Assembly: GCA_020434205.1 (NCBI GenBank)
Contig: JAGRBF010000159.1
Span: forward strand, 1 to 43,495
Source: Calditrichota bacterium
GTDB taxonomy: Bacteria > Calditrichota > Calditrichia > RBG-13-44-9 > J075
DNA length: 43,495 nt
Reading direction: 5' to 3'
Numbering within the stretch: position 1 is the stretch's first letter; every line of letters starts with the position of its first letter. The position numbers and the translations under genes were made by a program. This document shows positions 13,185 through 36,524 of this stretch, piece by piece. The notes beneath the pieces were generated by a model. The model had not been told where the DNA came from. It saw only the letters and a program-made list of their open reading frames with translations, and ran no database searches.

Positions 13185-13277
13185 TTTCAGCTCCTTTATG
13201 TTTCTTTGCCGTGAAAGCAGATACATTTTAATTTTCCCTAAGCTTTGCCTGGTTTTCGAGGCAATGAAAACTTTCAA

Positions 13278-14018: not shown

Positions 14019-14109
14019 GTAGCCGTCTCTCGCTCTCCAACATCCCGATTGCCTTCATTGATACTCCCCAAGGACTTTTTACCGCCCGCGCTTAATTTTT
14101 GGCAATGGT

Positions 14110-17898: not shown

Positions 17899-18276
17899 AG
17901 GTAATCAATTTTGAATAGATGTGATGCAATCAGTAAAAATGAATCGAAAGACAATAAAGATAAACCGGCCCGGAGGAAGTGTGTCAACCTTTACAAGATG
18001 CCCTAATTATGCAGGGTGAACCTTGACCCATGCAGCTAATTATCGGAATTTTTTCCTAAAATTCGCATATTGCGCTTTTGGAGTGAGATGCAGAACGGTT
18101 TTTGCGCCAAAGGCGTTTTGTGATTTTCTCTCTTTCTCGCACCATTTTTCGCTTGAATCAACTATCAATTCGAACTACTTTTCCGCAAGCCATTTGGGTG
18201 GGTGTGCTTTCCCCTCTTACCATTTTCCATTAAGCTGCACGTTCTGATGAGCCGGTTAAAAAGGAGTTAACCTCTC

Positions 18277-21099
18277 TTGTCGCTGTCACCTATTCCCATA
18301 GCCCCGGGAGCCCGGGTTCTGGTCCGCGATGCCGAATGGCTGGTGAGCCGGGTAGACCGCACCCAAAATGGAAATCAGGCCATTACCGCCATCGGTCTCT
18401 CGGAATTGGTGAAGGATAAGGAAGCTATTTTCCTGACCCATATCGACCGCGATATCAAGGTGATGGACCCGGCTAAAACCCGCATTGTCCCCGATGCCTC
18501 TCCCCAATTCCGGGAAGCCAAACTTTATATCGAAAGCCTCCTCAGGCAAACCCCACCGACAGATGAGCGCATTTACCTGGGACACCAGGCGGCCATCGAT
18601 CCGGTGCCTTATCAGCTGGATCCCGCTCACCAGGCTCTTAAACAACCGCGCCAGCGCATCCTGATCGCCGATGCGGTCGGGCTGGGGAAAACCATCGAGT
18701 TGGGCATCCTGCTCAGCGAGTTGATCGCCCGAGGCAAGGCGCGGCGTATTCTGGTGCTGGCGGTGAAAAGCATGCTGACCCAGTTTCAGAAGGAACTGTG
18801 GTGCCGGTTTACCATTCCCCTGACCCGCCTGGACTCGCTGGGCATTAAACGCATCCGCAGCCACATTCCCACCAACCACAATCCGTTTTATTATTTCGAT
18901 AAGACCATTATCTCCATAGACACGCTCAAGCAGGACAGCGAATACCGCACCTACCTGGAGAATTGTTTCTGGGACGTGATCGTCATCGACGAGGCCCACA
19001 ATGTGGCCGAACGCGGGACCCGCTCAATGCGCGCCCGTCTGGCCCGTCTGCTTGCCAGCCAGTCGGATACCCTGATCATGCTTACCGCCACCCCTCACGA
19101 CGGTCGTCCGCGCTCTTTCGCCAGCCTGATGAATATGCTCGATCCGACCGCCATCGCCGATCCCGAGCACTACGGCCCGGAGGATATCCGGGGGCTGTTC
19201 ATCCGGCGCTTCAAGAAGGACATTATTGATCAGGTGGGAGATGCTTTCCGTCAGCGTCATATTGCGGTAAAGAAAGCCCAGGCCAGTCCCGCGGAAGAGG
19301 CGGTATTTGCCTTTCTTGCCGATCTCTCTTTCGCCCGTCTGGATCAGCGCCGCGGACCGGGCCAGTTGTTCAAAACCACCCTGGAAAAGGCCCTTTTCTC
19401 AAGCCCGGCCGCCTGCCGGCAAACGATCGCCAATCGCCTGCGCCGCCTGGAAAAAGAGGAGAGTCCGGAGGCCCTTGCCGATCGGAAGCACTTGCGTGAA
19501 TTGGAGCGGTTGTTGAGCGAAATTGGTATAGGGGATTTCACCAAATATCAGGCTTTGCTGGCCGGGATTCGCGAGAATCTTCAGTGGAACGGCCGGGACA
19601 GCGAGGATCGCCTGGTTATTTTCACTGAACGCATCGAAACCCTCAAATTTTTGGATGAAAATCTGCGCAAGGACCTGGGTCTGAAGGACAAGCAAATTGC
19701 CCAGCTGCGCGGGGATATGTCGGATGTGGATCAACAGGCGGTGGTGGAGCGCTTCGGCAAGGGGGATGATCCCCTTCGTTTGCTGATTGCCAGCGACGTG
19801 GCTTCGGAAGGGATCAATCTGCACTACCAGTGCCATAAGATGATTCACTTCGATATTCCCTGGTCGCTGATGGTCTTTCAGCAGCGCAACGGACGGATCG
19901 ACCGCTACGGCCAGAAACATACCCCCTTCATCGTTTATCTGATTACCGAAAGCGGGCACAATAAAATCCGGGGAGATGTGCGCATTCTGGAACTGCTGAT
20001 TGAGAAGGACGAGCAGGCGGTGCGCAATATCGGAGACCCCTCGGCATTAATGGGAGTCTATAACATTCAGCAGGAAGAGGACATCACCGCCCGGGCTATT
20101 GAAAGCGGGGAGGGCGCCCAGGCTCTGGAAGCGGCCATGAGCAGCCCCCGCACCGCCAATATGATGGAACTGGTGATGAAAGAGGCTCAGGTTGCCCCCT
20201 CGCCGGATTCGCCCACCGGGGAGCGCTTTTCGCTCTTCGCGGATGATTACCATTACCTGAAAACAGCGCTGGGCCATCTGCAGCAAGGGGAAACCCTGCA
20301 GGTCAGCTTTGACGATGCCCGGAACACCGTTAATTTAACCCCGCCGAAGTCGCTGGCCCATCGCCTTAAACGCCTGCCCCGCGAGATGCGCCCCGACCGG
20401 GGTGAGTTTGTGCTGACCGCCGATCGCATGCAGGTTCAGGCGGCCATGGATCGGGCCCGCCGCGAGGAAAGCAGCTGGCCGGATATCCAGCTGTTGTGGT
20501 CGCTACATCCCATGCTGCTGTGGCTGAACGACACGGTGCGGGCCGCTTTCGGCCGCATGGAAGCCCCGCTGCTGCGACTTTCTTCCCTCAAGGAAGACGA
20601 ATGCTTTTTTCTGATTTCCGGGCTGTTGCCCAACCGCAAGAGCCATCCCCTGGTGTACCGCTGGTTTGGGGTGGGATTTGAATCGGGGGAATTCCGGGAA
20701 ATCCTCCCTCTGGAAGCACTGCTGGAAAAAACCGAACTGCACCGCCGGGACTTTGCCAACACCGGGGTTAATGATCCGGTCCCTGCGGAAATGCCCATCC
20801 TGCTGGAGAGAGCCCTGGAAAAAGCCCGGTCCCGGATGGAAGAAGAGCGCGTCCAATACCAAACCCAAATGCGTCCCCGGCTCAAAGACCATCTGCAGCG
20901 CCTGAGCACCCTGGAGCAAAAGCAACTGGAGCAGGCTAAAATCAATTCGGAGACGGGGAAACTCAGCCAGACCGAATACGGACGGACCCAGCGGCAAATC
21001 GCCCGGGTGTTTCAGAACCACCTCACCTGGATTGAAGACACCCTGGAAACCGGGGATACCCCTTACCTGCAGGTGGTGGCGGTGATGCTGGGACGGTAG
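18277..21099 (+). CDS. drmD: SNF2-family helicase (DISARM DrmD-like)
   Basis: TTG start with AAGGAG at 18261-18266. Motif I ADAVGLGKTIE, motif II VIVIDEAHNV (DEAH at 18988-18999), LTATPHDGR, and helicase C motifs ..LLIASDVASEGINLH.. and ..QRNGRIDRYGQ... The symbol is an analogy call, not a verified orthologue. Confidence 0.8.
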   Translation: MSLSPIPIAPGARVLVRDAEWLVSRVDRTQNGNQAITAIGLSELVKDKEAIFLTHIDRDIKVMDPAKTRIVPDASPQFREAKLYIESLLRQTPPTDERIYLGHQAAIDPVPYQLDPAHQALKQPRQRILIADAVGLGKTIELGILLSELIARGKARRILVLAVKSMLTQFQKELWCRFTIPLTRLDSLGIKRIRSHIPTNHNPFYYFDKTIISIDTLKQDSEYRTYLENCFWDVIVIDEAHNVAERGTRSMRARLARLLASQSDTLIMLTATPHDGRPRSFASLMNMLDPTAIADPEHYGPEDIRGLFIRRFKKDIIDQVGDAFRQRHIAVKKAQASPAEEAVFAFLADLSFARLDQRRGPGQLFKTTLEKALFSSPAACRQTIANRLRRLEKEESPEALADRKHLRELERLLSEIGIGDFTKYQALLAGIRENLQWNGRDSEDRLVIFTERIETLKFLDENLRKDLGLKDKQIAQLRGDMSDVDQQAVVERFGKGDDPLRLLIASDVASEGINLHYQCHKMIHFDIPWSLMVFQQRNGRIDRYGQKHTPFIVYLITESGHNKIRGDVRILELLIEKDEQAVRNIGDPSALMGVYNIQQEEDITARAIESGEGAQALEAAMSSPRTANMMELVMKEAQVAPSPDSPTGERFSLFADDYHYLKTALGHLQQGETLQVSFDDARNTVNLTPPKSLAHRLKRLPREMRPDRGEFVLTADRMQVQAAMDRARREESSWPDIQLLWSLHPMLLWLNDTVRAAFGRMEAPLLRLSSLKEDECFFLISGLLPNRKSHPLVYRWFGVGFESGEFREILPLEALLEKTELHRRDFANTGVNDPVPAEMPILLERALEKARSRMEEERVQYQTQMRPRLKDHLQRLSTLEQKQLEQAKINSETGKLSQTEYGRTQRQIARVFQNHLTWIEDTLETGDTPYLQVVAVMLGR

Positions 21100-21117
21100 G
21101 CAGGGCCACATTTTGAT

Positions 21118-21152
21118 CCCCTAACCCCCTTAAGAAGGGGGAATTAAAGGGG
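21118..21152 (+). promoter_or_regulatory. GC hairpin in the SNF2-methyltransferase intercistronic gap
   Basis: CCCCCTT-aag-AAGGGGG (21125-21141) is a perfect 7-bp stem. It is nested in an outer CCCCT/AGGGG pair (21118-21122 / 21148-21152). No downstream T-run, so it is not a classical terminator. Confidence 0.3.
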
Positions 21153-21183
21153 GTCAAAACCAGAGCAGAAACAAGGAAGGCTA

Positions 21184-24100
21184 ATGGCCATCGATCTGAG
21201 CGGTATTAACAACGAAAATGAATTTTACGCCCATCATTATCTCAGCACCTTGCTGGAGAATGACCTGAAGGGGGTAATGGCGCTCTGGAAGGAGCGCGAG
21301 GAGCAGGAGGCGGATTACATCCCGCCGGACCGGGCCTTGGGTAATCTCTATCGTCCTTATTTCCAAGCCCGTAGCCGCCTGCAAGGCCTGCGAAACCCCC
21401 TCGTTCAGCGGGAACAACAGGGAGAAATCCTGCAAACCCTGCTGGAGCTGCTGGGATTTCCCTGGCAACCTCGCGAAATCCGCCTGGAGGATGGCCTGCT
21501 CTGTCCGGTGCTGGCCACCCTGAACGACCCGGCCGGGGCCCCGCAGCTATGGGTCCTGGAAATGCCCTTTCCCGGAGAGGAAGATCAATCGCTTTTTGAG
21601 CTGGCTCTGAATGAGGGAGACACGGGGGAAGCCCCTGTGGATGGGATGCCGGGAACGGTGCTGGATTTAATCAACAGGCATATTTTTGCCCAGGAAGAAC
21701 CGCCCCGCTGGCTAATTCTGGCCGGCTTTTATCAGGTGATCCTGGTCGACCGCAGTAAATGGGCCCAGAAGCGCCACTTGCGCTTCGACCTGGCGGAAAT
21801 TCTGGGCCGCCGCGAGGCCTCCACCCTGCGGGCCACCGCCGCCCTGCTGCACCGGGACAGCATCTGCCCGGAAAGCGGGCCCAATTTGCTGGACACCCTG
21901 GACGAAAAAGCCCATAAGCACGCCTTCGCGGTTTCCGAGGACCTCAAATACGCCGCCCGGGAGGCGGTGGAGCTGTTGGGCAACGAGGTGATTTACTACC
22001 TGCGCGAGGTGCGCAAGGAGCGCATCTTCGAACGCCCCGAGCTGGCCGCCCAACTGAGCAGCGAATGCCTGCGCTACCTCTATCGCCTGCTTTTCCTTTT
22101 TTACCTGGAAGCGCGTCCCGAGCTGGGCTTTGCTCCCCTGAAAAGCGATGCCTATCGCAGCGGCTACAGCCTGGAGGCCCTGCGGGAATTGGAAATGCGT
22201 CCCCTCAACAACGAGCGGGAGCGCAACGGCTATTATCTGCACCACTCTCTGCAAACCCTCTTCGATCTGGTTTATCAGGGGGTCAATTTCGAAGTGAAGG
22301 AGGGAAAGCTGGACTTCGAGGATAATCCGCTCTCCCACGAGTTTCGCATGGCGCCCCTCAAATGCCACCTCTTCGACCCGGAGCTTACCCCGCTGCTGAA
22401 GGGGGTGAAATTCCGCAACCGGGTCCTGCAGCGGGTGGTGGAATTGCTTTCCCTCTCCCGCCCGGCCCGGTCCGGCAAACGCCGGGAACGCCGGGGGCGG
22501 ATCAGCTATGCCCAGCTGGGGATCAACCAGTTGGGGGCGGTTTACGAAGGGCTGCTCTCCTACGCCGGTTTTTTCGCCCAGGAGGACCTCTACGAGGTTA
22601 AGAAAGCCGGCACCGACCCCACCGAGTTGGAAGCAGCTTATTTTGTGCCGGGGGCGGATCTGCCCCTTTACAAGGAAGACGAAAAAATTTACAACCAGGA
22701 CGGCAGCCTGCGCAAACACCCCCGCGGCAGCTTTATCTACCGCCTTTCGGGACGCCAACGCCAGAAGTCCGCTTCCTACTACACCCCGGAGGTGCTCACC
22801 CAATGCCTGGTGAAATACGCCCTGAAGACCTTGTTAAAGGAGGAGATGAGCGCCGAGGAGATTCTCCGCTTAACGGTTTGCGAGCCGGCCATGGGCAGCG
22901 GGGCCTTCCTGAACGAGGCGGTTAACCAGCTGGCGGAGGCCTATTTGCAGCGCCGCCAGAAGGAACTGGGGGAAACCCTGGGGCCGGAGCAGTACCTGCG
23001 GGAACGCCAGAAGGTTAAGATGTATCTGGCGGATAACAACGTTTTCGGGGTGGACCTCAACCCCACCGCCATCGAGCTGGCCGAGGTGAGTTTGTGGCTA
23101 AACAGCATTTACGCCGGCAGTGAGGAGCAGGCCGCCTTTGTGCCCTGGTTCGGGATGCAGCTCAATTCCGGCAATTCCCTGATCGGAGCCCGACGGGAGG
23201 TTTTTGAGGGGCACCAGCTGGGCCGGGAGCGCCAATGGCTGAGCGCGGTGCCGCAAGCGGTTTCCCGGCAGGATTCTCCCTCGCCGACCTCGGTTTACCA
23301 CTTTCTGCTGCCGGACGAGGGCATGGCCTTTTATAACAACAATGTCATTAAAGCCATGGCCGGGGAGGCCCTCAAAAGGATGGCCGCCTGGCGCAAGGAC
23401 TTTTGTGCCCCCTTTTCGCCGGGGCAATTGAGCACCCTGCAGAGTCTTTCCCGGGTGGCTGATGAACTGTGGGCCGAGCAGGCCATCCAGCAGCAGCGCA
23501 TCCGGGAGCGCACCACCGATCCTATCGCCATTTACGGGCGACCCGCCAAAGCCGGGCGACGCCCCAGCACCACCCGGGAAAAGGACAAGATCTTCGACCA
23601 GGAAATGCACAGCAAGGGAGTGCGCAACGCCAGCCCTTACCGGCGCCTCAAGCTGGTAATGGACTACTGGTGCGCCCTGTGGTTCTGGCCCCTTGAAAAA
23701 GCGGATCTGTTGCCCAGCCGGGATGAATTCCTGCTGGAGGTAAAGCTTATCCTGGAAGGGCAAAAGGCGATGAGCGGGGTGGTTGGGGAACAAACCACCC
23801 TTTTCCCCACCACCCAACCCCAGCAGCTGGCCCTGCAGTTGCTGGACAAACACGGCTTTGTGGACCTTGCGGCGTTGCAGGACTACCCCCGCCTGCGCCT
23901 GGTGCGGGAGCTGGCCACCCGCTACCGCTTTTTCCACTGGGAGCTGGAATACGCCGACCTTTTTGCCGAACGGGGTGGGTTCGACCTGGTATTGGGGAAT
24001 CCCCCCTGGGTGAAGTTGGAATGGAGCGAAGGGGGCATTTTGGGGGACTTCGAACCCCTCTACGACATCCGCAAATTCAGCGCCTCCCGCTTAAACAAAC

Positions 24101-25881
24101 TGCGCGAGGAAACCCTGGAAAAGCACCAATTGCATGGGGCTTACCTTGGGGAATTCGAAGAAGCGGAGGGGGCCCAGAACTTTTTAAACGCCCGCCAGAA
24201 CTACCCCGCCCTGCAGGGCATGCAGTCCAACCTGTACAAATGTTTCCTGCCCCGGGCCTGGGGGATGGTTAACCAGCAGGGTGTTTCCGGCTTTGTGCAT
24301 CCGGAAGGGGTGTACGACGATCCCAAAGGGGGGGCTTTTCGGGAGCAGCTGTACCCGCGCCTCAGGTACCATTTTCAGTTTCAAAACGAGTTCGGCCTTT
24401 TTGAAGGGACTAATGATCATGGAAGGCTCAAATTTAGCTTAAACGTTTATGGAGCGGTTAAATCGGAAGGTGATTTTACAAATATTTCCTGGCTCTTTCA
24501 TCCTAAAACCATTGATGAGTGTTTTCAGAAACAAGTTTCTTATAAGGTTGAAGGGATTAAGAATTCTGATAATCAATGGAATATTGTTGGTCATCCGGAC
24601 CGCTTGGTACCTGTTAATAGTAACACCCTCGCTCTCTTCGCCAAACTCTACGACCCGCCCGGCACCCCGGCCGTGCAGGCCCGCTTGCCGGTGGTGCATT
24701 CCCGGCAGGTGCTGGCGGTGCTGGAGAAATTTGCCGCTCAGGAACGGCGCCTGGGGGATCTGGTTGGAGAATACACGGCCACGGTTATGTGGGATGAAAC
24801 CAATGCCCAAAAGGCGGGGATTATCCGGCGGGAGACCCGCTTTCCTGAACATCCCGGTGAGTGGATTGTCTCCGGCCCTCATTTTTACGTGGGCAATCCC
24901 TTCAACAAAACTCCCCGGGAGGCGTGCACCCAGAATTCCCATTACGATGTCCTCGATCTCACCGAGCTCCCTCCGGACTACCTGCCCCGCACCAACTATG
25001 TGCCGGCGGCTCCCCCGGCCGTTTACCAGCAGCGCACCCCCAAAGTGCCCTGGGGGGACAACAGGGGGGTGACGGAGTATTATAGATTGGCTTTTAGAAA
25101 AATGTTGAGTCAATCAGGCGAGAGGACAATGATCCCAGCTATTTTGCCCCGATATTGTGGTCACGTTGATGGTACCTTTAGCTTGGTTTTTAAAGACAAC
25201 TCAATGCTCATCTCCGCATTTTCTCTTTTTAGTTCATTATCCTTTGACTTTTTTTTGAAAACGACTGGCAAAGCCAATTTTAGAAATGAACTAGCAGTTT
25301 TACTACCAATTGTAGAAAGTGAATATGCCAAACAAATGACTTTGCGGTCGTTATTGCTTCATTGTTTGTCGCAAAGCTATACCGAACTTTGGAAAGGAAT
25401 ATGGGAACAAAATCTAACAAAAGATTTCTGGACCAAACCCGACCCGCGCCTGGACAACGCCCACTTCGCCAATCTCACCCCGGAATGGACCCCGGCAATC
25501 CCCCTGCGCAGCGACTACGCCCGCCGCCAGGCCCTGGTGGAAATCGACGTGCTGGCCGCCAAAGCCCTGGGACTTACCCTGGAGGAGCTGTGCGCCATCT
25601 ACCGCATTCAATTCCCGGTGCTGCGCCAGAACGAAAACGATACCTGGTACGACCGCAAGGGGCGCATTGTCTTTACCTGCTCCAAAGGGCTGCCCGGGGT
25701 GGGCTTCAGCCGTCCGGAATGGAATGACATTAAGGACCTGCAAAGCGGGACTGTGGAGCGCACTGTAAGCGATCACACCCGCCCCGGACCGCCCCGGGAA
25801 TGCACCATCGTCTACCAGGCCCCCTTCGATCGCTGCGACCGGGAAGCCGACTATGCCACCGCCTGGGAGGCCTTTTCATGA
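21184..25881 (+). CDS. drmMI: Large (1565 aa) gamma-class N6-adenine DNA methyltransferase, Eco57I/PglX/DrmMI-like
   Basis: SAM motif I CEPAMGSGAFLNEA (about 22881-22910). Catalytic motif IV VLGNPPWVK (NPPW about 23998-24009). No nuclease motif seen. The stop overlaps the next start (ATGA at 25878-25881). Symbol by analogy. Confidence 0.85.
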   Translation: MAIDLSGINNENEFYAHHYLSTLLENDLKGVMALWKEREEQEADYIPPDRALGNLYRPYFQARSRLQGLRNPLVQREQQGEILQTLLELLGFPWQPREIRLEDGLLCPVLATLNDPAGAPQLWVLEMPFPGEEDQSLFELALNEGDTGEAPVDGMPGTVLDLINRHIFAQEEPPRWLILAGFYQVILVDRSKWAQKRHLRFDLAEILGRREASTLRATAALLHRDSICPESGPNLLDTLDEKAHKHAFAVSEDLKYAAREAVELLGNEVIYYLREVRKERIFERPELAAQLSSECLRYLYRLLFLFYLEARPELGFAPLKSDAYRSGYSLEALRELEMRPLNNERERNGYYLHHSLQTLFDLVYQGVNFEVKEGKLDFEDNPLSHEFRMAPLKCHLFDPELTPLLKGVKFRNRVLQRVVELLSLSRPARSGKRRERRGRISYAQLGINQLGAVYEGLLSYAGFFAQEDLYEVKKAGTDPTELEAAYFVPGADLPLYKEDEKIYNQDGSLRKHPRGSFIYRLSGRQRQKSASYYTPEVLTQCLVKYALKTLLKEEMSAEEILRLTVCEPAMGSGAFLNEAVNQLAEAYLQRRQKELGETLGPEQYLRERQKVKMYLADNNVFGVDLNPTAIELAEVSLWLNSIYAGSEEQAAFVPWFGMQLNSGNSLIGARREVFEGHQLGRERQWLSAVPQAVSRQDSPSPTSVYHFLLPDEGMAFYNNNVIKAMAGEALKRMAAWRKDFCAPFSPGQLSTLQSLSRVADELWAEQAIQQQRIRERTTDPIAIYGRPAKAGRRPSTTREKDKIFDQEMHSKGVRNASPYRRLKLVMDYWCALWFWPLEKADLLPSRDEFLLEVKLILEGQKAMSGVVGEQTTLFPTTQPQQLALQLLDKHGFVDLAALQDYPRLRLVRELATRYRFFHWELEYADLFAERGGFDLVLGNPPWVKLEWSEGGILGDFEPLYDIRKFSASRLNKLREETLEKHQLHGAYLGEFEEAEGAQNFLNARQNYPALQGMQSNLYKCFLPRAWGMVNQQGVSGFVHPEGVYDDPKGGAFREQLYPRLRYHFQFQNEFGLFEGTNDHGRLKFSLNVYGAVKSEGDFTNISWLFHPKTIDECFQKQVSYKVEGIKNSDNQWNIVGHPDRLVPVNSNTLALFAKLYDPPGTPAVQARLPVVHSRQVLAVLEKFAAQERRLGDLVGEYTATVMWDETNAQKAGIIRRETRFPEHPGEWIVSGPHFYVGNPFNKTPREACTQNSHYDVLDLTELPPDYLPRTNYVPAAPPAVYQQRTPKVPWGDNRGVTEYYRLAFRKMLSQSGERTMIPAILPRYCGHVDGTFSLVFKDNSMLISAFSLFSSLSFDFFLKTTGKANFRNELAVLLPIVESEYAKQMTLRSLLLHCLSQSYTELWKGIWEQNLTKDFWTKPDPRLDNAHFANLTPEWTPAIPLRSDYARRQALVEIDVLAAKALGLTLEELCAIYRIQFPVLRQNENDTWYDRKGRIVFTCSKGLPGVGFSRPEWNDIKDLQSGTVERTVSDHTRPGPPRECTIVYQAPFDRCDREADYATAWEAFS

Positions 25882-28800
25882 TCCCCGCCATTCTCAGCCG
25901 TCAGGTGCGCCAGGGCATCCGGGATTTCCTGCTCACCACCTTCCCGGTTTCTACCCCGCTTTTCCGGGAAACCCTGCCACAACTGCTGGAGGATGAGGAG
26001 GCCCTCTTTAAGGGACCCTATCTTTCCCTCAAACGCCCCTTCCGGGCCGCGGCGGATGCCGGCCAGCCCTTCACCGGGTTTGAGCCCGGTTTTACCGCCC
26101 ACCGCCACCAGGCCCGGGCCTTTGCCCGCCTGAATGGCGAGGCTCCCCGCTCCACCCTCATCGCCACAGGGACCGGCTCCGGGAAAACGGAGAGCTTTCT
26201 TTTCCCGGTTCTGGAGCATTGTTACCGAAATCGCGAAAAAGGGGGCATTAAGGCCATCCTCATTTATCCCATGAACGCCCTGGCCAACGACCAGGCCCGC
26301 CGCCTGGCGCGTTTTGTGCACCGGGAACCCCGGCTGCGCGGAAGCCTGCGGGCCGGCCTTTACATCGGCGGCAAGGGGGAGCGCAGCAACAAGGAAATGA
26401 CCGCGGAGAATGTGATCACCGATCGTTTTCGTCTGCGCGACCAGCCCCCGGATATTTTGCTCACCAACTACAAGATGTTGGACTACCTGCTGGTGCGTCC
26501 CGGAGACCAGGCCCTGTGGCGGCACAATGCTCCGGAAACCCTGCAATATCTGGTGGTAGACGAATTGCACACCTTCGACGGGGCCCAGGGTACCGATCTG
26601 GCCTGCCTGCTTCGTCGACTCAAGCAGCGCCTTAAAACCCCCGCCGGACATCTGTGTTGCGTGGGCACCTCCGCCACCCTCGGTGGGGAAAAAGAGGCCT
26701 CGCGGCTGCTGGATTACGCCCGGGATATTTTTGGGGAGCCTTTCGATGGGCAGGCGATTATCAATGAGGATTTGCTGAGTAGCGCCGAATTCCTGGCCGG
26801 CAGCCCCATTCGCTACCGGGAGATACCCGATGCCGCCGGGGGACTTTTGCCCGGGGAGGCCCATACCCCCTACGCTTATCTGGCCGATCAGTACCGGCTG
26901 TGGTTTGGAGAAGAGGCCCCCGCAGCCCCGGAGGAACTGGCAACGGCATTGCCGCAAAAACTGCGCGAGCACCAGTTCCTGCGCTACCTGCTCAACATTC
27001 TGGAGAAGGGACCCCGTCCGGTGGGCGAAATCGGGGCGGAGCTATCCCTGCTGGTGCCGGAATTTGGGGCGGCATCCCCGCAGGAGCGGGCCAAGCTGCT
27101 GGACAGCTTTGTGGCGCTCATCTCCGCCGCCCGGATAAACAATGGGCAAGGCCAGCTTCCCTTCCTGGAGGTCCGCTACCAACTGTGGCTGCGGGAGCTG
27201 CGGCGTATGGTGGTTTCGGTTGCCCAAAGGCCGCAAATGGCCTTCTCAGACGATCTGGATCAGGACGCCCTGGCGGGTCACCTCCCGGTGGTGCACTGCC
27301 GGGAATGCGGGGCCATGGGTTGGGGAGCTCTGAAACGCCAGCAGGACACCCGCTTTTCCCCGGACCTGCAGCGCTTCTACCAATCTTTTTTTGCGGGCGG
27401 ACCCACCCTGCACTTTGTCTTTCCGGTTCAGCATAGCGAAGGGCGGGGGCAGGGCATTTGCGGTCACTGCCTGCACCATTACCAGGGGAGCCCCCAAAAC
27501 TGTCCCGCCTGCGGCAAAGCCGACCGGCTCATAGCCGCGGAGGTCTTTAACGAACGCCGCACCCGCAATAACCGCGTTTATGTGGATAAACACTGTCCTT
27601 ATTGCCAGGCGCACGACGGGCTTACCATTCTGGGCTCCCGGGCCGCCAGTCTGATCAGCGTGGCCATCAGTCAACTGTTTGCCTCGCCCTTCAACGACGA
27701 CAAAAAACTCCTCACCTTTTCCGATTCGGTTCAGGATGCCGCCCACCGGGCCGGTTTCTTTGGGGCCCGCACCTTTCGCTTCAACTTTCGCGCCGCCCTC
27801 CAGCAATGTTTGCAGGATCAGGAACAGCCGCCTTCCCTGGCCGCCATGCCCGGGGTTTTCGAGCAGTATTGGTCCCGGCGCCTGGATGGAAATGCCTATC
27901 TCAGCACCTTTTTTCCGCCGGATCTGCACTACCGCGAGGATTACGGATACCTGCGGCAACACGGAAAGCTGCCCAGGGGATCGGAACTACCGGAGCTGCT
28001 GCGGCAGCGCCTTTCCTGGGAAGTTAATTCCGAATACGGCTACCGGGCCCGGGTGGGGCGCACCCTGGAGAAGAGCGGGGCTTCGATAGCCCTGCCCGAT
28101 CCGCAGCGCCTGCAAAAAGCGCTTGAGAACCTGCTGCCCATGTTGCGCGAAGAAATTGGGGGCCTGCGGGAGCTGGACCAGACCGCCCTGGCGCGCCTCA
28201 TCGGTGGATTTATTGCCCAGTTGCGCGTAAAAGGAGGTGTTTTTCATCCCGGCCTGGAAAGCTATATCCGGGAGGGCGCCAATACCTTTATGCTGCGGCG
28301 TGTTCCTTACATGCCGCCGTTTGCGCCAGGGGGGCGCACCCCGGTTTTCCTGAGCCAGATCCCCTTTGGTTACGAACGCTTCGACGTGCTGTTGCGCGCC
28401 GGCAGCGTTACCTGGCACAGCCAGTGGGCGGTCAAAAATTTACTGCCCTTCGGCCAGCAGTTCGATCCGTTTATGGGGGATATCTACCGGTTATTGCTCC
28501 GGGAATTGGTTGCCCGGGAAATATTGCAGGAAGAGACGGTGCATGGGGTATCCGTCTGGGGACTGCGCGGGGAGGCCCTCCAACTGACCACTGCGGTGCG
28601 GCAACTGCGCTGCGACACCTGTGGGCACGACATGTCCGCCGCCACCGGGGAAGACCATTGGGTAGGAATGCCCTGTCTGCGTTTTAACTGCAGGGGGCAT
28701 TATCAGGCGGAGCCTTCCGGCGAGGACTACTATCGCCGCCTTTACAGCACCGGGGATATTCAGCGTATCTTTGCCGAGGAGCACACCGGGCTGCTGGGCC

Positions 28801-31800
28801 GTGAGGAACGCGAGGAATTGGAGCAGCACTTCGAGCAGCAGAACCATCCCTGGGATCCCAATCTGCTCTCCTGCACCCCAACCCTGGAGATGGGGGTGGA
28901 TATCGGAGCGCTTTCCTCGCTGGTGCTCTGTTCGGTGCCGCCCCGCCAGGCCAACTACCTGCAGCGCATCGGCCGGGCCGGTCGGCGGGATGGCAATAGC
29001 TTTATCCTGACTGTCGCCAATGGCGATCCCCACGATCTCTATTTCTACCAGCAGCCGGAAGAAATGATGGCCGGTGCGGTGGAGCCCCCGGGCGTTTTCC
29101 TGAATGCCCCGGCAGTCCTGGAACGCCAGTTTATCGCCTTCACCTTCGAAAGATTCATCCTGGCCGGCGTCCCGACCCCCGCCTTGCCGGCTAAAATCCG
29201 TCCGGTGCTCAACAGGTGGGAGAAGGAAGAACCGGGTAATTTCCCCTACAACTGGCTGGCCTTTTGCGAATCCTCGCAGGGAATTTTGCTTACTGACTTT
29301 TTCAACCTCTTTCAGGATGCCCTGGACGAGACGGCCAGAAAACACCTTTCTCAGTTTGTAAAAACCGACCGCCGTGAGGGCCTGCAATCCAGTATTAAAG
29401 CCGCTTTTGCCGATGCCGCGGAGGAGATCCGGGTGCATCGCCAGCGGGTTCAGCAACTCAACCGGAAAATCCGGGAAATGGAAAACAGTCCGGTTCGGGA
29501 CCAAAACTACGATGCCAATCTCAACGAACTAAAACGCGAAAAGCAGGCCCTTAACGGGATTATCAACAAAATTGCCGATAAGGACCTGTTTAGCTTTCTC
29601 AGTGAAGAAGGACTGCTGCCCAATTACGCTTTTCCCGAGCCGGGGGTGCAACTGCGTTCGGTTATCTATCGGAAAAAGAGACGCGCCGATGCGGAGGGCG
29701 CCTATCAGGTGAGCGTCTACGAATACGAGCGCCCCGGGGCCAGCGCCATTCGCGAGCTTGCCCCCGAGAATCAGTTCTACGCCGGGGGGCGCCGGGTGAG
29801 CGTGGATCAGATAAATCTCCAGCTTTCCCCGGAGGAATTCTGGCGGTTTTGCGACAATTGCAGCCACATGGCCCGGGATCTGGGCGGGGAAGTATCGCCC
29901 ACCTGTCCCACCTGTGGGAGCGAAAGGTGGTCCGACCACAATCAGGTCCGTTCCCTGATTCGCATGAAGCAGGTGATGGCCAATACCAGCGACCGGGAAA
30001 GCCGTATCGGGGACGACAGCGACGATCGAAGCCCTGCCCACTATCACAATCATTTGGTGGTCGAAATCGGCAGGGACAAAGTTGCCAGCGCCTTTCACAT
30101 TCCCGGCGACCAGGTGCCCTTCGGATTCGAATACATCTCCCGTTTCACCCTTCGCGAGATCAACTTCGGCCATCGCGAGCAAGCCGGCAACCCGATCCGC
30201 ATTGCCGGGCAGGATACCGGGATCAACGGCTTTCAGGTTTGCCGGGCCTGCGGAAAAGTCCGAAAAGCCGGGGACGCCGAAGGCCGCTGGCACGCCTTCG
30301 GTTGCCGTTATCGCGGCTTAACCGACGACGATTCTACCCTGAGCGGGTTTTACCTCTACCGCGAATTTCAGTCCGAAGCCCTGCGCATTCTGGCCCCGGC
30401 CCTGCTGAGAGAGGATTCCGGTTCGGTGGTCAACTCGCTGCGCGCAGCCCTTTTCCTGGGGCTTCGGGAGCATTTCCGGGGAGACATCGAGCACCTGCAG
30501 ATCGCCCAGCAGTTTGAACCCTACGATGGCCCGGATTTTCAGCGCCATTACCTGGTGCTCTACGACCGCGTTCCCGGGGGAACCGGCTATCTTAAGGAAT
30601 TAATGCGTGATAATTACCCCCTCCTGGATGTGCTGCAAAAAGGGCTGGATAAACTCAAGGCCTGTCCCCGATGCAGCCGTGCTGACGGTCCGGACGGCTG
30701 TTACCAATGTATTTACGCCTATCGTTTTAGCCGCGATATGGCCAATATCTCGCGGCAAAGCGCCATTAACCTGCTCACCGAGATTCTCCGGAACCGCCAT
30801 CAGGTTGGTCCCATCGAAACGGTTGATACCATTTCCCTGAACAACCTTTTGGAAAGCGAACTGGAAAAGCGTTTTGTGGACGGCCTGGCCCGCCTGGCCC
30901 TGGAAAAGGACAATATCCGCCTGGAGAAAGAGATCGTCAATGGCAAGCACGGTTGGCGGCTGCAGGTCGGAGAATCCGTCTATCGCATGGAACCCCAGGT
31001 AAATCTGGGGCCGGAGCAAGGGGTGTCCGAGCGCTGCCGGGCAGACTTTGTGCTTTACCCGATTAAACAAACGCCCGGAAAGCCGGTGGTGCTCTTTACC
31101 GACGGCTTTGCCTATCACGCCGGGGAAACACAGCTAAACCGCCGCCTGGGAGCGGATATGCGTCAGCGTATGGCCATTGTGGACAGCAAAGCCTTCCGGG
31201 TGTGGTCGCTAACCTGGCAGGACCTCGAAAAACTGGAAACCCGCCATCCGGAACATTTTGAGAACCTGCTTAAATCGCCTCCCCACCAGCTTTTTCAGGT
31301 TTACAGTAACCAACCGGGTCGACAAGAACATCAGCGCTTGCTCCAGCTGGGCTCCATGGATCTTCTGATCGCCCATCTGGAAAAGCCTCAGGCCGGGTAT
31401 TGGCTGGCGGTTGCGCACCTGGCCGTTCTGGGCATGGTGGTGGCGGAAGGTTTGGTGAACATCAGTAAGGACACCTATCGCAAGGCTTTGCAAGAGGCCG
31501 TGGCCGCTCCGCTTGATGAGCAAAAGCTGGACGTCCCTTTAGCCGAAGAGGGAGGCACTTTACTGGGCTGCCGCTGGGTGTTCTCGGGAGAGCAGGAGGG
31601 GGCAACCGTGCTGTTTATGGTGATCAGTCAGAACGATGACATCGTTACCTCGGGTGGGAAAGGCATTCGGCTGCTGGTGCGCCTCTTAGACGAAAAGCCC
31701 ATGCCCCGCGAAAAGTTCCGGCGCCTCTGGAATGGTTATCTGCAGGCCTTCAACCTGCTGCAGTTTTTGCCGGGAGCGCGATTCCTCGCCAGTGAAGGGC

Positions 31801-32165
31801 TTCGTAGCGCCGGGGATCCCGTGGTGGATGAATGGTTGTTTGCCGAGATTGAACCGCAACAGGATGCCCCGCAAATTGAACCCGCCTGGGCGGAGATTCT
31901 GGCCGTCAGCGAACCGGCCTGGCAGGGGGCAATTGAGCAACTCAGCGGCATGTCCGTCCCCCTGCCCATCTGCGGCTACGAACTCATGAACACCGGTGGG
32001 GCGGTTTGCGCTCAGGCTTTCCTGGCCTGGGAAAACGACATGATTGCCATTCTGGCGCCAGATGAAATGGATGGAAAACACCTTTTTGAAGAAGCCGGCT
32101 GGCAGGTTTTTGCTATCGACGCTCTGGTGAGAGATCCGGCAATGCTGTCAGGCCTTTTCAAATAA
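25878..32165 (+). CDS. 2095-aa DEAD/DEAH-box helicase fused to a DUF1998 zinc module and C-terminal Vsr/DUF559-like domains (DrmA+DrmB fusion-like, or DruE-like)
   Basis: Start set to ATG 25878 (MIPAILSRQ..; the ORF track's upstream extension overlaps the methyltransferase). Walker A ATGTGSGKTE (26163-26189), DELH (26559-26570), SATLG, ..TPTLEMGVDIG.. and ..QRIGRAGRR... DUF1998-type Cys clusters FCDNCSH..CPTCGS, CRACGKV, YLVLYDRVPGGTGYL and CPRCSRADGPDGCYQC (about 29840-30710). Confidence 0.85.
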   Translation: MIPAILSRQVRQGIRDFLLTTFPVSTPLFRETLPQLLEDEEALFKGPYLSLKRPFRAAADAGQPFTGFEPGFTAHRHQARAFARLNGEAPRSTLIATGTGSGKTESFLFPVLEHCYRNREKGGIKAILIYPMNALANDQARRLARFVHREPRLRGSLRAGLYIGGKGERSNKEMTAENVITDRFRLRDQPPDILLTNYKMLDYLLVRPGDQALWRHNAPETLQYLVVDELHTFDGAQGTDLACLLRRLKQRLKTPAGHLCCVGTSATLGGEKEASRLLDYARDIFGEPFDGQAIINEDLLSSAEFLAGSPIRYREIPDAAGGLLPGEAHTPYAYLADQYRLWFGEEAPAAPEELATALPQKLREHQFLRYLLNILEKGPRPVGEIGAELSLLVPEFGAASPQERAKLLDSFVALISAARINNGQGQLPFLEVRYQLWLRELRRMVVSVAQRPQMAFSDDLDQDALAGHLPVVHCRECGAMGWGALKRQQDTRFSPDLQRFYQSFFAGGPTLHFVFPVQHSEGRGQGICGHCLHHYQGSPQNCPACGKADRLIAAEVFNERRTRNNRVYVDKHCPYCQAHDGLTILGSRAASLISVAISQLFASPFNDDKKLLTFSDSVQDAAHRAGFFGARTFRFNFRAALQQCLQDQEQPPSLAAMPGVFEQYWSRRLDGNAYLSTFFPPDLHYREDYGYLRQHGKLPRGSELPELLRQRLSWEVNSEYGYRARVGRTLEKSGASIALPDPQRLQKALENLLPMLREEIGGLRELDQTALARLIGGFIAQLRVKGGVFHPGLESYIREGANTFMLRRVPYMPPFAPGGRTPVFLSQIPFGYERFDVLLRAGSVTWHSQWAVKNLLPFGQQFDPFMGDIYRLLLRELVAREILQEETVHGVSVWGLRGEALQLTTAVRQLRCDTCGHDMSAATGEDHWVGMPCLRFNCRGHYQAEPSGEDYYRRLYSTGDIQRIFAEEHTGLLGREEREELEQHFEQQNHPWDPNLLSCTPTLEMGVDIGALSSLVLCSVPPRQANYLQRIGRAGRRDGNSFILTVANGDPHDLYFYQQPEEMMAGAVEPPGVFLNAPAVLERQFIAFTFERFILAGVPTPALPAKIRPVLNRWEKEEPGNFPYNWLAFCESSQGILLTDFFNLFQDALDETARKHLSQFVKTDRREGLQSSIKAAFADAAEEIRVHRQRVQQLNRKIREMENSPVRDQNYDANLNELKREKQALNGIINKIADKDLFSFLSEEGLLPNYAFPEPGVQLRSVIYRKKRRADAEGAYQVSVYEYERPGASAIRELAPENQFYAGGRRVSVDQINLQLSPEEFWRFCDNCSHMARDLGGEVSPTCPTCGSERWSDHNQVRSLIRMKQVMANTSDRESRIGDDSDDRSPAHYHNHLVVEIGRDKVASAFHIPGDQVPFGFEYISRFTLREINFGHREQAGNPIRIAGQDTGINGFQVCRACGKVRKAGDAEGRWHAFGCRYRGLTDDDSTLSGFYLYREFQSEALRILAPALLREDSGSVVNSLRAALFLGLREHFRGDIEHLQIAQQFEPYDGPDFQRHYLVLYDRVPGGTGYLKELMRDNYPLLDVLQKGLDKLKACPRCSRADGPDGCYQCIYAYRFSRDMANISRQSAINLLTEILRNRHQVGPIETVDTISLNNLLESELEKRFVDGLARLALEKDNIRLEKEIVNGKHGWRLQVGESVYRMEPQVNLGPEQGVSERCRADFVLYPIKQTPGKPVVLFTDGFAYHAGETQLNRRLGADMRQRMAIVDSKAFRVWSLTWQDLEKLETRHPEHFENLLKSPPHQLFQVYSNQPGRQEHQRLLQLGSMDLLIAHLEKPQAGYWLAVAHLAVLGMVVAEGLVNISKDTYRKALQEAVAAPLDEQKLDVPLAEEGGTLLGCRWVFSGEQEGATVLFMVISQNDDIVTSGGKGIRLLVRLLDEKPMPREKFRRLWNGYLQAFNLLQFLPGARFLASEGLRSAGDPVVDEWLFAEIEPQQDAPQIEPAWAEILAVSEPAWQGAIEQLSGMSVPLPICGYELMNTGGAVCAQAFLAWENDMIAILAPDEMDGKHLFEEAGWQVFAIDALVRDPAMLSGLFK

Positions 32166-32194
32166 AAACTTGTTCCCAAAGCCTTGGATAAAAT

Positions 32195-34333
32195 ATGACT
32201 TCATCTTCAGTCCCAACCAACAAGCCCGTTAACGTTGCCATATCCGTGGACCTGCTCAAGGCTTACGCCGGGATTCCCCGTTCACAGCAGGGCAAAATCC
32301 GGGAGTTCATTGAAAAATTCCAGGAGAATCCCACCTCTCCGGGGATCAACTACGAAAAGATTCAGCAATGGAAAGACCCCAACCTGCGTTCCGTGCGCAT
32401 CGACCAACAATACCGTGGGGTAGTCCTCAAACCCGATAGCGGAAACCTCTTTATGCTCCTTTGGGTGGCTACTCATGACGAAGCATACCAGTGGGGCATG
32501 GACAAGCGCATTAAAATTCATCCCACCACCGGTTCCTTGCAGGTCGTATCCACCGAATTGGTGGAGCCGGAGCCTCAACGTCAGGATAAAGCCCGGGTGC
32601 CAGGACTTTTTGATGCCTACAAAGACCGGCAACTGGCGCGTCTGGGGGTGCCTGAAGAACTGTTGCCGCTGGTGCGCCATATCCGCAACGAGCAGCAATT
32701 GGATGTTCGTTCCCACGAGCTGCCTCAAGAAGTTTATGAGGCCCTGTTGATGCTGGCTGCCGGTTACAGCTATGAGGAAGCGGTGCTGGAAATTGAAGCC
32801 CCTGAACAACCGGTTGATACGGGAGATCTTTCCGAAGCCCTTCAGCATCCGGACTCGCAGCGGCGCTTTCATGTTCTGACCGATGCCCAGGAATTGGCCG
32901 AGATTCTCAATGCCCCGTTAGCGTTGTGGCGGGTTTTCTTACACCCATCCCAGCAGAAGCTGGTCAGTCAACACTTTAACGGTCCCGCAAGGGTGCTGGG
33001 TGGGGCAGGCACCGGAAAAACCGTGGTAGCCATGCATCGCACCAAATTTCTGGCTGGCCGCTGTGGCAAGGGTGAGCGCGTTCTGGTCACCACCTTTACC
33101 CGCAACCTGGCCGAAGACATTCGCACCAATCTCCACAAGATTTGTTCCCTGGAGGAAATGAAGCGCATTGAGGTCATACATTTCGATGGGTGGGTGGCCA
33201 GTTTCCTCCGAAAAAACGGCTACGACTTTCAATTGGTTTACGGCCGGGAGGAATCGGAGGCCTATTGGAACAACGCCCTCAATGTGGCGCCCCCGGCACT
33301 GGATTACGACCGTTCCTTCTATCAGGCAGAGTGGGAACAGGTTATCCAGGCCCAGGGCATTGTCACCCGGGAGGCGTATCTCAAAACGCTTCGCAGTGGC
33401 CGGGGGGTTCGGCTCAGTCGCATTGAGCGCAGCCGCATCTGGCCGGTTTTTGAAGAATACCGCGAGCAGTTAAATGCCCATGGCAAAAAGGAATTCGTTG
33501 ATGCCACCCGGGATGCCCGGCGCCTGTTGGAGCAGCAGGGCGATGTGCTGTCCTACCGCGCCATTGTGGTCGATGAAGCCCAGGACTTTAGCAGTGAGGC
33601 TTTTCGTTTAGTGCGCACCATGATCCCCGAATCGCGGGCTGACCTCAGTAACGACATTTTCATTGTCGGCGATGCCCATCAGCGCATATACGGGCACAAA
33701 GTGGTACTGGGACACTGTGGCATTAACATTCGTGGCCGGGGGCGGCGCCTCAAGATCAACTACCGCACCACCGAAGAAACCCGTCGTTGGGCCATAAATT
33801 TACTGGAAGGCAAGGATATTGACGATCTGGACGGTCAACCCGATCATCAGCGGCTCTACAAATCCTTGATACATGGGGTTGAGCCGGGGCTTCACGGGTT
33901 TGACAGCTTTGCCGCGGAAACCGCCTTTATCCGGGAACACATTTCGCAACTGATCGGGGAGGGGGCATTGCCAGAGGGCATTTGTTTGACTGCCCGGACC
34001 CATTCCTTGCTGAAACAGTATGAGGGGGCCTTATTGTCGGCGGGTTTAGAAACCTATACCATTCGTCATGAGCAGGCCGAAGAAATCCGTCACCCTGGCA
34101 TTCGCTTGGCCACCATGCACCGGGTTAAGGGGATCGAATTCGACCATATGATCATTGCCGGGGTAAATAGCGGCATCGTTCCCCTGGAGATTACCCGGGG
34201 CAGCAGCGAAGACCCTGCCATCGCGGCGGATCACGACCTCAAAGAGCGGGCCCTGCTTTACGTTGCCGCCACCCGCGCCCGCAAAACGGTGGTGATCACC
34301 TGGTTTGGGGCGGGTAGTGAGTTTGTGGTGTAG
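32195..34333 (+). CDS. UvrD/Rep-family (SF1) helicase with N-terminal RelE/ParE-like domain
   Basis: Walker A GGAGTGKTVVAMHR, motif II IVVDEAQDF, C-terminal ..TMHRVKGIEFDHMII.. and ..LLYVAATRARK... The N-terminal ~110 aa read ..FIEKFQENPTSPGINYEKI..LRSVRIDQQYRGVVLKPDSGNLFMLLWVATHDEAY.. (RelE/ParE-like pattern). Confidence 0.85.
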   Translation: MTSSSVPTNKPVNVAISVDLLKAYAGIPRSQQGKIREFIEKFQENPTSPGINYEKIQQWKDPNLRSVRIDQQYRGVVLKPDSGNLFMLLWVATHDEAYQWGMDKRIKIHPTTGSLQVVSTELVEPEPQRQDKARVPGLFDAYKDRQLARLGVPEELLPLVRHIRNEQQLDVRSHELPQEVYEALLMLAAGYSYEEAVLEIEAPEQPVDTGDLSEALQHPDSQRRFHVLTDAQELAEILNAPLALWRVFLHPSQQKLVSQHFNGPARVLGGAGTGKTVVAMHRTKFLAGRCGKGERVLVTTFTRNLAEDIRTNLHKICSLEEMKRIEVIHFDGWVASFLRKNGYDFQLVYGREESEAYWNNALNVAPPALDYDRSFYQAEWEQVIQAQGIVTREAYLKTLRSGRGVRLSRIERSRIWPVFEEYREQLNAHGKKEFVDATRDARRLLEQQGDVLSYRAIVVDEAQDFSSEAFRLVRTMIPESRADLSNDIFIVGDAHQRIYGHKVVLGHCGINIRGRGRRLKINYRTTEETRRWAINLLEGKDIDDLDGQPDHQRLYKSLIHGVEPGLHGFDSFAAETAFIREHISQLIGEGALPEGICLTARTHSLLKQYEGALLSAGLETYTIRHEQAEEIRHPGIRLATMHRVKGIEFDHMIIAGVNSGIVPLEITRGSSEDPAIAADHDLKERALLYVAATRARKTVVITWFGAGSEFVV

Positions 34334-34438
34334 AGGGTAGGGAAAACCAAAACCGCCGGCCCTGGCTGTACGGCCTTTGGCTAAACACTTGCGAAAATAT
34401 TAATTGTTTACTTTGCTATCCGGATTGTGGAGGAAGAA

Positions 34439-36480: not shown

Positions 36481-36524
36481 ATCCCCAATAAAATCGGATT
36501 TTCCGTTCCGATTTTATTGGGGAT
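36481..36524. terminator. Perfect 17-bp hairpin between convergent genes (putative bidirectional terminator)
   Basis: ATCCCCAATAAAATCGG (36481-36497), 10-nt loop, CCGATTTTATTGGGGAT (36508-36524). It lies between the 3' ends of 35991..36452 (+) and 36609..37415 (-). No clean U-tract follows on either strand. Confidence 0.5.

Follow-up and report, generated by a model that had tools for sequence, protein, structure and literature searches.

We describe here a defence cassette on contig JAGRBF010000159.1 of a Calditrichota metagenome-assembled genome (MAG; assembly GCA_020434205.1), which was analysed over its entire length of 43,495 bp and is referred to as the window. Four large, co-directional genes on the plus strand span positions 18277-34333, and with a probability of roughly 90% they form a complete and apparently intact ARMADA Type II anti-phage operon (armA-armB-armC-armD), composed as follows (aa, amino acids):

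18277..21099, plus strand: armA, 940 aa, SNF2/RapA-like (BrxHII-like) helicase
21184..25881, plus strand: armB, 1565 aa, PglX-like N6-adenine DNA methyltransferase
25878..32165, plus strand: armC, 2095 aa, YprA-family DExH helicase-nuclease
32195..34333, plus strand: armD, 712 aa, GajB-like UvrD/SF1 helicase

A preprint of 2025 introduced ARMADA as the system that connects DISARM with Druantia (Bell et al., bioRxiv Sept 2025, PMC12458937). Its Type II is defined by a strictly co-directional set of a BrxHII-like helicase, a PglX-like methyltransferase, a YprA-like helicase, and a GajB-like helicase (PMC12458937), and it was shown to defend Escherichia coli (PMC12458937; mBio 2026, PMC13463889). 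In the window, gene order, strand, and domain content as determined with Pfam and PADLOC agree with this definition, including the fusion of an OB-CON-DUF1998 unit with the YprA-family helicase in ArmC that Type II requires. The locus is therefore a system first described in 2025, here found in a Calditrichota bacterium. An initial annotation of this DNA had proposed an undescribed intermediate between DISARM and Druantia; the intermediate position stands, as it is the very concept of the ARMADA paper (PMC12458937), but the novelty does not, the system having been described as ARMADA Type II in 2025-2026. The domains assigned to the four genes in that annotation, with helicase and DUF1998 in one 2095-aa protein, were confirmed by Pfam and PADLOC.

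The evidence for this assignment comes mainly from comparison with the E. coli system. When E. coli genomes were searched by blastn under sensitive settings, the query being the helicase core of armC, 526 of 5426 gave a match. The top locus, in strain 2452, comprises DruH-DruE followed by genes for proteins of 952, 1640, 2113, and 704 aa, with a tRNA-Phe gene and an integrase gene adjoining; it is the published Druantia III + ARMADA II island, and the strain 2452 proteins have exactly the expected residues at the positions that Bell et al. changed by mutation. In BLASTP comparisons with these proteins, ArmA of the window is 50% identical over 945 aa (914 bits, a single full-length alignment), ArmB 48% over 1659 columns (1410 bits, essentially full length), ArmC 39% over 2139 columns (1406 bits, full length), and ArmD 48% over 705 aa (652 bits, essentially full length). 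All eight mutationally tested E. coli residues are conserved: K138/D238 of ArmA in the window correspond to K136/D236 of the E. coli protein, G571/N939 of ArmB to G605/N971, K103/D228 of ArmC to K110/D234, and K275/D460 of ArmD to K266/D454. The window proteins are full-length counterparts, and most likely orthologues, of E. coli ArmA-D.

The same comparison was extended to related systems by summing bit scores. Window ArmC gave 1406 bits with Type II (E. coli), 248 with the presumed Type I reference, 204 with DruE, and 36 with DrmA; ArmA gave 914 with Type II, 148 with the presumed Type I reference, and 123 with DrmD; and ArmB gave 1410, 160, and 98 with Type II, the presumed Type I reference, and DrmMI, respectively. 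The Type I and class 1 DISARM references were both taken from the Nocardioides plasmid pNOCA01, the DISARM one being annotated by NCBI. The similarity of E. coli DruE to ArmC is local and confined to two patches, RecA1 and RecA2-to-DUF1998 (115 + 89 bits). By these scores the cassette is placed closer to Type II than to the Type I, Druantia, or DISARM helicases, and the score hierarchy together with the local DruE match shows that the locus belongs neither to DISARM nor to Druantia.

The gene models were examined with particular regard to armC. The start codon of armA is TTG, with an AGGAG 10 nucleotides (nt) upstream; the stop codon of armB and the start codon of armC share an ATGA (25878-25881), and a spacer of 29 nt (32166-32194) separates armC from armD, both exactly as the initial annotation had given them. 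An alternative reading of armC from 25800 would yield 2121 aa, longer than the 2095 aa from the ATG at 25878; the latter is taken as the true start because the N-terminus MIPAILS fits the family consensus MIPSVLS and because the GenBank model (MCB0274868.1) has the same 2095 aa. The giant open reading frame (ORF) is genuine. The assembly or frameshift artefact that the initial annotation had considered can be dismissed, since more than 100 full-length homologues of ArmC size (~2100 aa) exist at 42-50% identity, since the GenBank model is identical, and since other Calditrichia MAG assemblies, separate from this one, contain ArmC fragments that fall into its 90%-identity cluster. The block from 18 to 35 kb, recognised as GC-rich from the start, has a GC content of 53-62% compared with 40-46% in the flanks. 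A chimeric MAG assembly, suggested by this jump, was ruled out, as independent contigs (ENA, Logan, NCBI) cross both junctions between GC-rich and low-GC DNA. On the basis of the GC profile, the cassette was acquired horizontally; it lies inside a Calditrichota (Calditrichia) defence island. Direct and inverted repeats were looked for at the borders of the GC-rich block, with nothing beyond short chance matches, no tRNA gene was found near the cassette in the window, and megablast gave no plasmid match to the cassette.

ArmA contains the Pfam domains SNF2-rel_dom, ResIII, and Helicase_C, with an ATPase core at approximately aa 119-297 and Helicase_C at aa 440-545; K138 lies in the Walker A motif and D238 in the Walker B motif (DEAH). 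PADLOC matched it to DrmD (2.6e-101, partial, first 400 residues only) and BrxHII (1.7e-62). ArmB carries Eco57I, N6_Mtase, and MmeI_Mtase domains, an S-adenosylmethionine-binding motif CEPAMGSGAF (with G571), and a catalytic GNPPW with N939 (nt 23998-24009), and it is 75 aa shorter than E. coli ArmB. Its PADLOC matches are REase_MTase_IIG (PDLC03614, 4.8e-281), nearly end to end, and DrmMI (1.3e-52), partial. It is thus probable that members of the ArmB family had already been listed, under PDLC03614, as putative Type IIG enzymes; GenBank labels the window protein 'hypothetical protein'. In comparison with Type IIG restriction-modification enzymes, the match to this model is near-complete, yet Pfam shows no nuclease domain in aa 1-505 or 940-1565, and stand-alone Type IIG action of ArmB is argued against by the conserved four-gene synteny. 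A Pfam scan at E-values up to 5 revealed no RelE, Vsr, EEP, BrxA, or MarR match in the N- and C-termini of ArmB or in the C-terminus of ArmA; as with the ArmC and ArmD regions scanned likewise (see below), sequence profiles proved too weak here. Among 29 ArmB orthologues the least conserved stretches are approximately aa 51-150, 751-800, and 851-900, which are candidate specificity determinants.

ArmC combines in one ORF the Pfam domains DEAD (aa 76-269), Helicase_C (aa 967-1037), and MZB (PF09369)/DUF1998 (aa 1523-1612). RecA1 comprises aa 76-269 (with K103 and D228) and the RecA2 core aa 941-1090; a helical region leads from there to the OB-CON-DUF1998 unit, which extends to aa 1640 and in which the DUF1998 cysteines 1596/1599/1608/1611 are invariant. 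Between RecA1 and RecA2 lies an insertion of about 650 residues (aa 291-940), colinear with E. coli ArmC at 37% identity, with the invariant CxxC pairs C474/477, C528/531, C542/545, C573/576, and C912/915 and the further invariant pair C933/C938. For ArmC of ARMADA Type II, BrxA-like, zinc beta-barrel, and MarR-like domains were described between RecA1 and RecA2 (PMC12458937); Pfam gave only weak zinc-ribbon matches in the window insertion and no match to BrxA or MarR (E-values up to 5). The best PADLOC matches of ArmC are DruE1 and DruE3 (~1e-101, partial).

The C-terminal extension of ArmC (aa 1641-2095) was modelled with AlphaFold2 (AF2) from an alignment of homologues (mean predicted local distance difference test, pLDDT, of 84.5) as three domains, delimited as follows:

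30831..31247, plus strand: ArmC domain 1, aa 1652-1790, Vsr/DUF559-like PD-(D/E)xK nuclease (predicted)
31248..32162, plus strand: ArmC domains 2 and 3, aa 1791-1985 and 1986-2095, defined by AF2 and E. coli colinearity

In domain 1, E1663, D1723, D1742, H1747, D1760, and R1764 are invariant and T1741 nearly so. hhalign against E. coli Vsr gave an E-value of 2.5e-4 at a probability of 43% and paired RADFV..VLFTDGFAYH of domain 1 with RPDFVV..VIFTHGCFWH of Vsr, which is the catalytic D51/T63/H64/H69 block. In a Foldseek search of the viral library BFVD, a restriction endonuclease, DUF559, and Vsr were among the top named matches (probability 0.94-1.0, E-values 8e-3 to 0.13), and five of 21 family members showed weak matches to PF18741. 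The domain is 40% identical to the corresponding one of E. coli ArmC, which Bell et al. called an active Vsr (HHpred 5.2e-5; PMC12458937), with the motif FTDGF in the window in place of FLDGF in E. coli. Domain 1 is accordingly predicted, with moderate confidence, to be an active Vsr-type PD-(D/E)xK nuclease, in line with the nuclease-like C-terminal domains that the initial annotation had placed on the giant protein. Other searches added nothing to this: profile hidden Markov models of domains 1 and 3 found nothing meaningful among PDB sequences; with the complete three-domain model as query, Foldseek returned from the PDB no significant match, only low-probability ones of PD-(D/E)xK type, and was less informative than with the viral library; the best 150 phmmer matches of domain 1 among 1.84 billion representatives were ArmC-sized or shorter proteins and fragments, with no bridge to Vsr; and hhalign showed no similarity of domain 1 to a stand-alone DUF559 protein or to domain 3. 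Domains 2 and 3 align colinearly with E. coli ArmC, of which they share 26% and 33% of residues, respectively, and the corresponding E. coli regions were labelled 'inactive EEP?' and a second Vsr-like domain, often present but not invariable (PMC12458937). In the window both are without Pfam, PDB, or hhalign support, the match of domain 3 to Vsr being a trivial one of 14 columns; PADLOC gave a partial ZorE2 match at aa 1995-2085.

ArmD consists of a UvrD-type helicase (Pfam UvrD-helicase and UvrD_C, the UvrD N- and C-terminal domains; aa 249-704 with K275 and D460), to which PADLOC assigned GajB (1.9e-29, helicase part), and of an N-terminal region with the following domain:

32231-32554, plus strand: RelE-fold domain of ArmD, approximately aa 13-120, predicted by AF2 and Foldseek

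The AF2 model of aa 1-250, built from an alignment of homologues, has a pLDDT of 86.6, and in a Foldseek search of the PDB, RelE/YoeB/YafQ-type toxins made up the top 14 matches and most of the top 50 (TM-score normalised to the target up to 0.72, probability 1.0). Pfam found no RelE domain in aa 1-250 at E-values up to 5; 'helicase/RelE' is the Joint Genome Institute name for many ArmD homologues. According to the model, then, the N-terminus of ArmD has a RelE-like fold. ArmD is a 100% match to the Calditrichia protein P0121.

The four-gene arrangement is not peculiar to the window. It was found around the closest ArmC homologues, those of Magnetococcus marinus MC-1, Desulforhabdus amnigena, and a Calditrichota MAG, and a scan of species-representative genomes, of which the best 80 loci were considered, included Pseudomonadota, Desulfobacterota, Cyanobacteriota, Bacillota, Acidobacteriota, Verrucomicrobiota, Thermotogota, and Synergistota. 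Nearly all of these 80 relatives carry ArmD. Where at least 2.5 kb of downstream sequence was available, ArmD with its N-terminal domain follows ArmC on the same strand in 60 of 62 loci, and in 49 of these 60 at a distance of no more than 300 nt. Of 51 loci whose upstream sequence was long enough, 38 show ArmA and ArmB, in this order, ahead of ArmC; in most of the others ArmB is present and ArmA lies beyond the fetched flank. The UvrD gene, which the initial annotation had taken for an extra, is thus no add-on, given its conservation in 60 of 62 relatives, and ArmD is a fourth, essential component. As for individual loci, the only exceptions among the 62 are two of Rhodothermales MAGs (L040, L063), with armA-armB-armC and no armD within 10 kb downstream. 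In Desulforhabdus amnigena (L003/L004) armA is split by an insertion sequence (DDE_Tnp_1), and this copy is probably inactive.

The armB-armC junction is tight in the window, but in 25 of 53 related loci 1-9 kb of other genes, mostly on the same strand, intervene. These loci include the following:

L002, 7541-9965; L059, 4289-8414; L077, 6379-8304
L078, 8066-9964; L085, 6390-9852; L022, 4992-8273
L037, 7898-9274; L016, 7083-9980; L065, 8223-9989

The ten largest inserts were scanned, and all of them contain defence-type domains. GmrSD lies at the junction in three loci (L002 being counted by annotation), and the other cargo includes an OLD-type AAA_15+TOPRIM ATPase with a UvrD helicase (a Gabija-like pair), a dynamin-like GTPase pair, AAA_21/SMC-like ATPases, a ResIII helicase, and DUF2326. 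No mention of nesting at this junction was found in the main text of Bell et al. (PMC12458937). A possible explanation, to which we give somewhat less than even odds, is that ARMADA II consists of two modules, armAB for modification and discrimination and armCD as helicase-nuclease effector, that their junction is a recurrent landing site for defence genes, and that the window represents the compact, coupled core. The ATGA shared by armB and armC in this compact version suggests that translation of the two modules is coupled. If so, the nesting would resemble that of defence genes inside BREX loci, and the core form in Calditrichota would work without Druantia III or Zorya II neighbours and would have gained a lineage-restricted orphan ORF (34427-35917) downstream.

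Within ARMADA II, the islands of E. coli NCTC 12900, ATCC 8739, and EDL933 (O-island 172) have the identical four-gene order on a common strand. They also share with the window the RelE-like ArmD N-terminus, the three-domain ArmC extension starting from a Vsr-like nuclease, and the tight armB-armC join. In contrast to E. coli, the window cassette has no Druantia III or Zorya II neighbours and no integrase or tRNA gene nearby, the E. coli island adjoining tRNA-Phe and an integrase gene; and it occurs in Calditrichota, outside the phylum of E. coli, its closest relatives being Desulfobacterota-type MAGs at 45-50% identity. ARMADA Type I has its three core protein families in common with the cassette (a PglX-like methyltransferase, a BrxHII-like helicase, and a YprA-like helicase that carries a fused DUF1998 and a Vsr-type nuclease), but it lacks ArmD, its helicase usually comes first, and its ArmC is shorter. 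On the conjugative plasmid pNOCA01 of Nocardioides sp. JS614 (NC_008697.1, 69-105 kb; L088/L089), a Type I-like locus (1741-aa helicase, SNF2-like helicase, and methylase, then McrBC genes) lies about 4 kb from a class 1 DISARM locus (drmD, methyltransferase, drmA, drmB), so that related systems coexist on one replicon.

Of the systems described before ARMADA, class 1 DISARM (DrmD, DrmMI, DrmA, DrmB, with or without DrmC) and Druantia Type III (DruH-DruE) bear most directly on the assignment. The initial annotation had seen in the cassette a non-canonical class 1 DISARM with a fused DrmA-DrmB and an additional UvrD helicase, and the order of SNF2 helicase, large adenine methyltransferase, and DUF1998-associated helicase does resemble drmD-drmMI-drmA-drmB, with DrmD as the best PADLOC match of the first gene and DrmMI matching the second. 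Both matches are partial, however, and the scores given above show ArmA and ArmB to be homologous to, but distant from, DrmD and DrmMI, while the third gene is matched best by DruE models and DrmB gives no match at all. In class 1 DISARM, helicase and DUF1998 reside in separate proteins, a separate phospholipase D (PLD)-type nuclease occurs, and there is no UvrD component; here one 2095-aa ORF carries both helicase and DUF1998, and the UvrD gene is kept in nearly all relatives. The operon has no DrmC; the sole PLD ORF (14110-15108), about 3 kb upstream and with a weak DrmC match (1.6e-8), reads from the minus strand, belongs to the low-GC flank, with another gene in between, and is not conserved in related loci. 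We consider the DISARM assignment extremely unlikely and largely refuted. DISARM and the ARMADA system of the window probably share the logic of recognising unmodified DNA with single-stranded DNA (ssDNA) features. A new type of Druantia, with a DruE-like giant helicase and novel partners, draws on DruE1/DruE3 as the best PADLOC matches of the giant protein, on its size, and on its fused DUF1998, since DruE, too, is a YprA-family helicase-nuclease of ~2100 aa with inter-RecA insertions. Membership in Druantia is nevertheless refuted, its residual probability being just as minute: the DruE match amounts to two patches compared with the full-length match to ArmC, the partners are exactly ArmA, ArmB, and ArmD, and Druantia lacks partners of the methyltransferase, SNF2, or UvrD kind. 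PADLOC, run on the ORFs of the cassette and its flanks, revealed no DruH, DruA-D, or DruM/F/G, and the C-terminus of ArmC shows a Vsr-like motif and, by Pfam, no PLD nuclease domain, the type in which DruE ends.

The cassette might also be composed of two adjacent, independent systems sharing a defence island, a BREX- or Type IIG-like armAB and a helicase-nuclease armCD. The near end-to-end match of ArmB to the Type IIG model and the cargo-split junctions, which suggest that the modules tolerate separation, would fit this explanation. We regard it as very unlikely, as armAB and armCD stay linked in constant order and strand across many phyla despite the cargo, as any single-gene deletion abolishes defence in E. 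coli (PMC12458937; PMC13463889), as armB and armC of the window overlap, and as ArmB shows no nuclease domain by Pfam. Likeness to BREX is limited to the PglX-like ArmB with its NPPW motif needed for defence and to the BrxHII matches of ArmA; PglZ, BrxC, BrxA, BrxB, and BrxL are absent from the cassette. The lack of PglZ, BrxC, and Hsd genes reported in the initial annotation was borne out, the only BREX-type match being a weak BrxL/Lon-like one on the unrelated ORF 8611-9573. With Gabija the cassette has in common only that GajB models match the helicase part of ArmD; there is no GajA in the window, and GajB lacks the RelE-like domain. PADLOC 2.0.0 (2023) did not classify the locus as canonical DISARM_1, an outcome that the initial annotation had named as refuting its proposal; it returned mixed partial matches to DrmD, DrmMI, DruE, and GajB because it predates ARMADA.

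Several points weigh against the assignment to ARMADA Type II, or against parts of it. The closest experimentally validated system is just 39-50% identical to the window proteins. The Type I reference, a 1741-aa helicase, is presumed to be Noca_4772 of Bell et al. by replicon and gene order only; the supplement of that paper lists a Type I helicase on the pNOCA01 replicon (PMC12458937). The Vsr assignment of ArmC domain 1 is of moderate strength (hhalign 43%, Foldseek E-values of ~1e-2), and neither Pfam at E-values up to 5 nor PDB searches found Vsr or EEP in the window ArmC C-terminus. A promoter scan of the region upstream of armA (17899..18276) gave 0 sites, with models of sigma-70 type only, which may not suit a Calditrichota host. 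Finally, neither PMC12458937 nor PMC13463889 describes a methylation motif, a nuclease activity, or a complex of an ARMADA system.

The ARMADA II system of E. coli gives protection from many phages; none of its four genes is dispensable, and defence depends on the Walker motifs of ArmA and ArmC, the Walker A motif of ArmD, and the NPPW motif of ArmB (PMC12458937; PMC13463889). Infected cells remain viable (PMC12458937; PMC13463889), and the defence is therefore direct rather than abortive. By analogy with PglX/BrxHII of BREX and DrmMI/DrmD of DISARM, ArmB together with the SNF2 translocase ArmA may use N6-adenine methylation of a specific motif as a mark on host DNA, and ArmB may take part in telling unmodified foreign DNA from host DNA; as defence depends on its NPPW motif, the role of ArmB goes beyond that of a passive antidote. 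The ARMADA II islands of E. coli differ from one another chiefly in armB (PMC13463889), which fits a variable specificity determinant. ArmC would be the effector, a YprA/MrfA-type ssDNA translocase whose OB-CON-DUF1998 canopy and zinc modules would engage ssDNA-containing phage intermediates and whose C-terminal Vsr-type nuclease would cut DNA. ArmD, as the obligatory SF1 partner, probably unwinds or processes substrates for ArmC, or it may couple sensing to activation.

The genes and intergenic features surrounding the cassette in the window are the following (CSD, cold-shock domain):

8611-9573, minus strand: Lon/BrxL-C-terminal-like ORF, weak BrxL/Lon-like match (E-value 5.7e-7), unrelated to the cassette
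9570-11375, minus strand: AAA_15/AAA_21+DUF3696 ATPase, NsnB/AriA-like by PADLOC, overlapping ORF 8611-9573
12285-13277, minus strand: unannotated ORF, 330 aa
13278-14018, minus strand: HNH protein
14110-15108, minus strand: the PLD-nuclease protein discussed above, with weak matches to DrmC and DpdK
15187-17898 and 37587-39800, both minus strand: CSD proteins, paralogues of 903 and 737 aa flanking the GC-rich block
17899..18276: intergenic region of 378 nt between the divergent CSD-protein gene and armA
34427-35917, plus strand: orphan ORF, 496 aa, 93 nt downstream of armD, intermediate GC content
35991-36452, plus strand: DUF1232 gene, convergent with 36609-37415
36481-36524: perfect 18-bp inverted repeat between the DUF1232 gene and the PDC-S69-type gene
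36609-37415, minus strand: 268-aa protein, PADLOC candidate PDC-S69 (2.2e-38), PD-(D/E)xK-like C-terminus

The operon promoter presumably lies within 17899..18276, and the inverted repeat looks like a bidirectional terminator; promoter and terminator scans performed no better than shuffles. The candidate defence genes at 8611-15108 in the low-GC flank probably represent one or two separate systems. The two CSD paralogues have an N-terminal cold-shock domain and share a Cys-rich C-terminal region of ~240 aa (30% identity, E-value 2e-24); CSD-containing proteins are known in some conflict systems. The orphan ORF downstream of armD had no match in Pfam, PADLOC, or NCBIfam, and a collection of 5.8 billion protein clusters contained, its own record aside, just two homologues, at 44% identity; with this scarcity and its absence from 86 of 86 related loci, it was ruled out as a fifth component.

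The locus carries a lesson for annotation in that the 2023-era PADLOC 2.0.0 splits one described system into partial DISARM, Druantia, Type IIG, and Gabija matches. It opens no new category, but it is useful when diverse representatives are to be chosen for mechanistic work. ARMADA II is now seen in a Calditrichota genome and, by the genome scan, in many other phyla, and it exists in a compact, stand-alone form without the Druantia III and Zorya II neighbours of E. coli. The most useful by-product of the analysis is the recognition of the armB-armC junction as a frequent site of nested defence cargo in the relatives of this operon.

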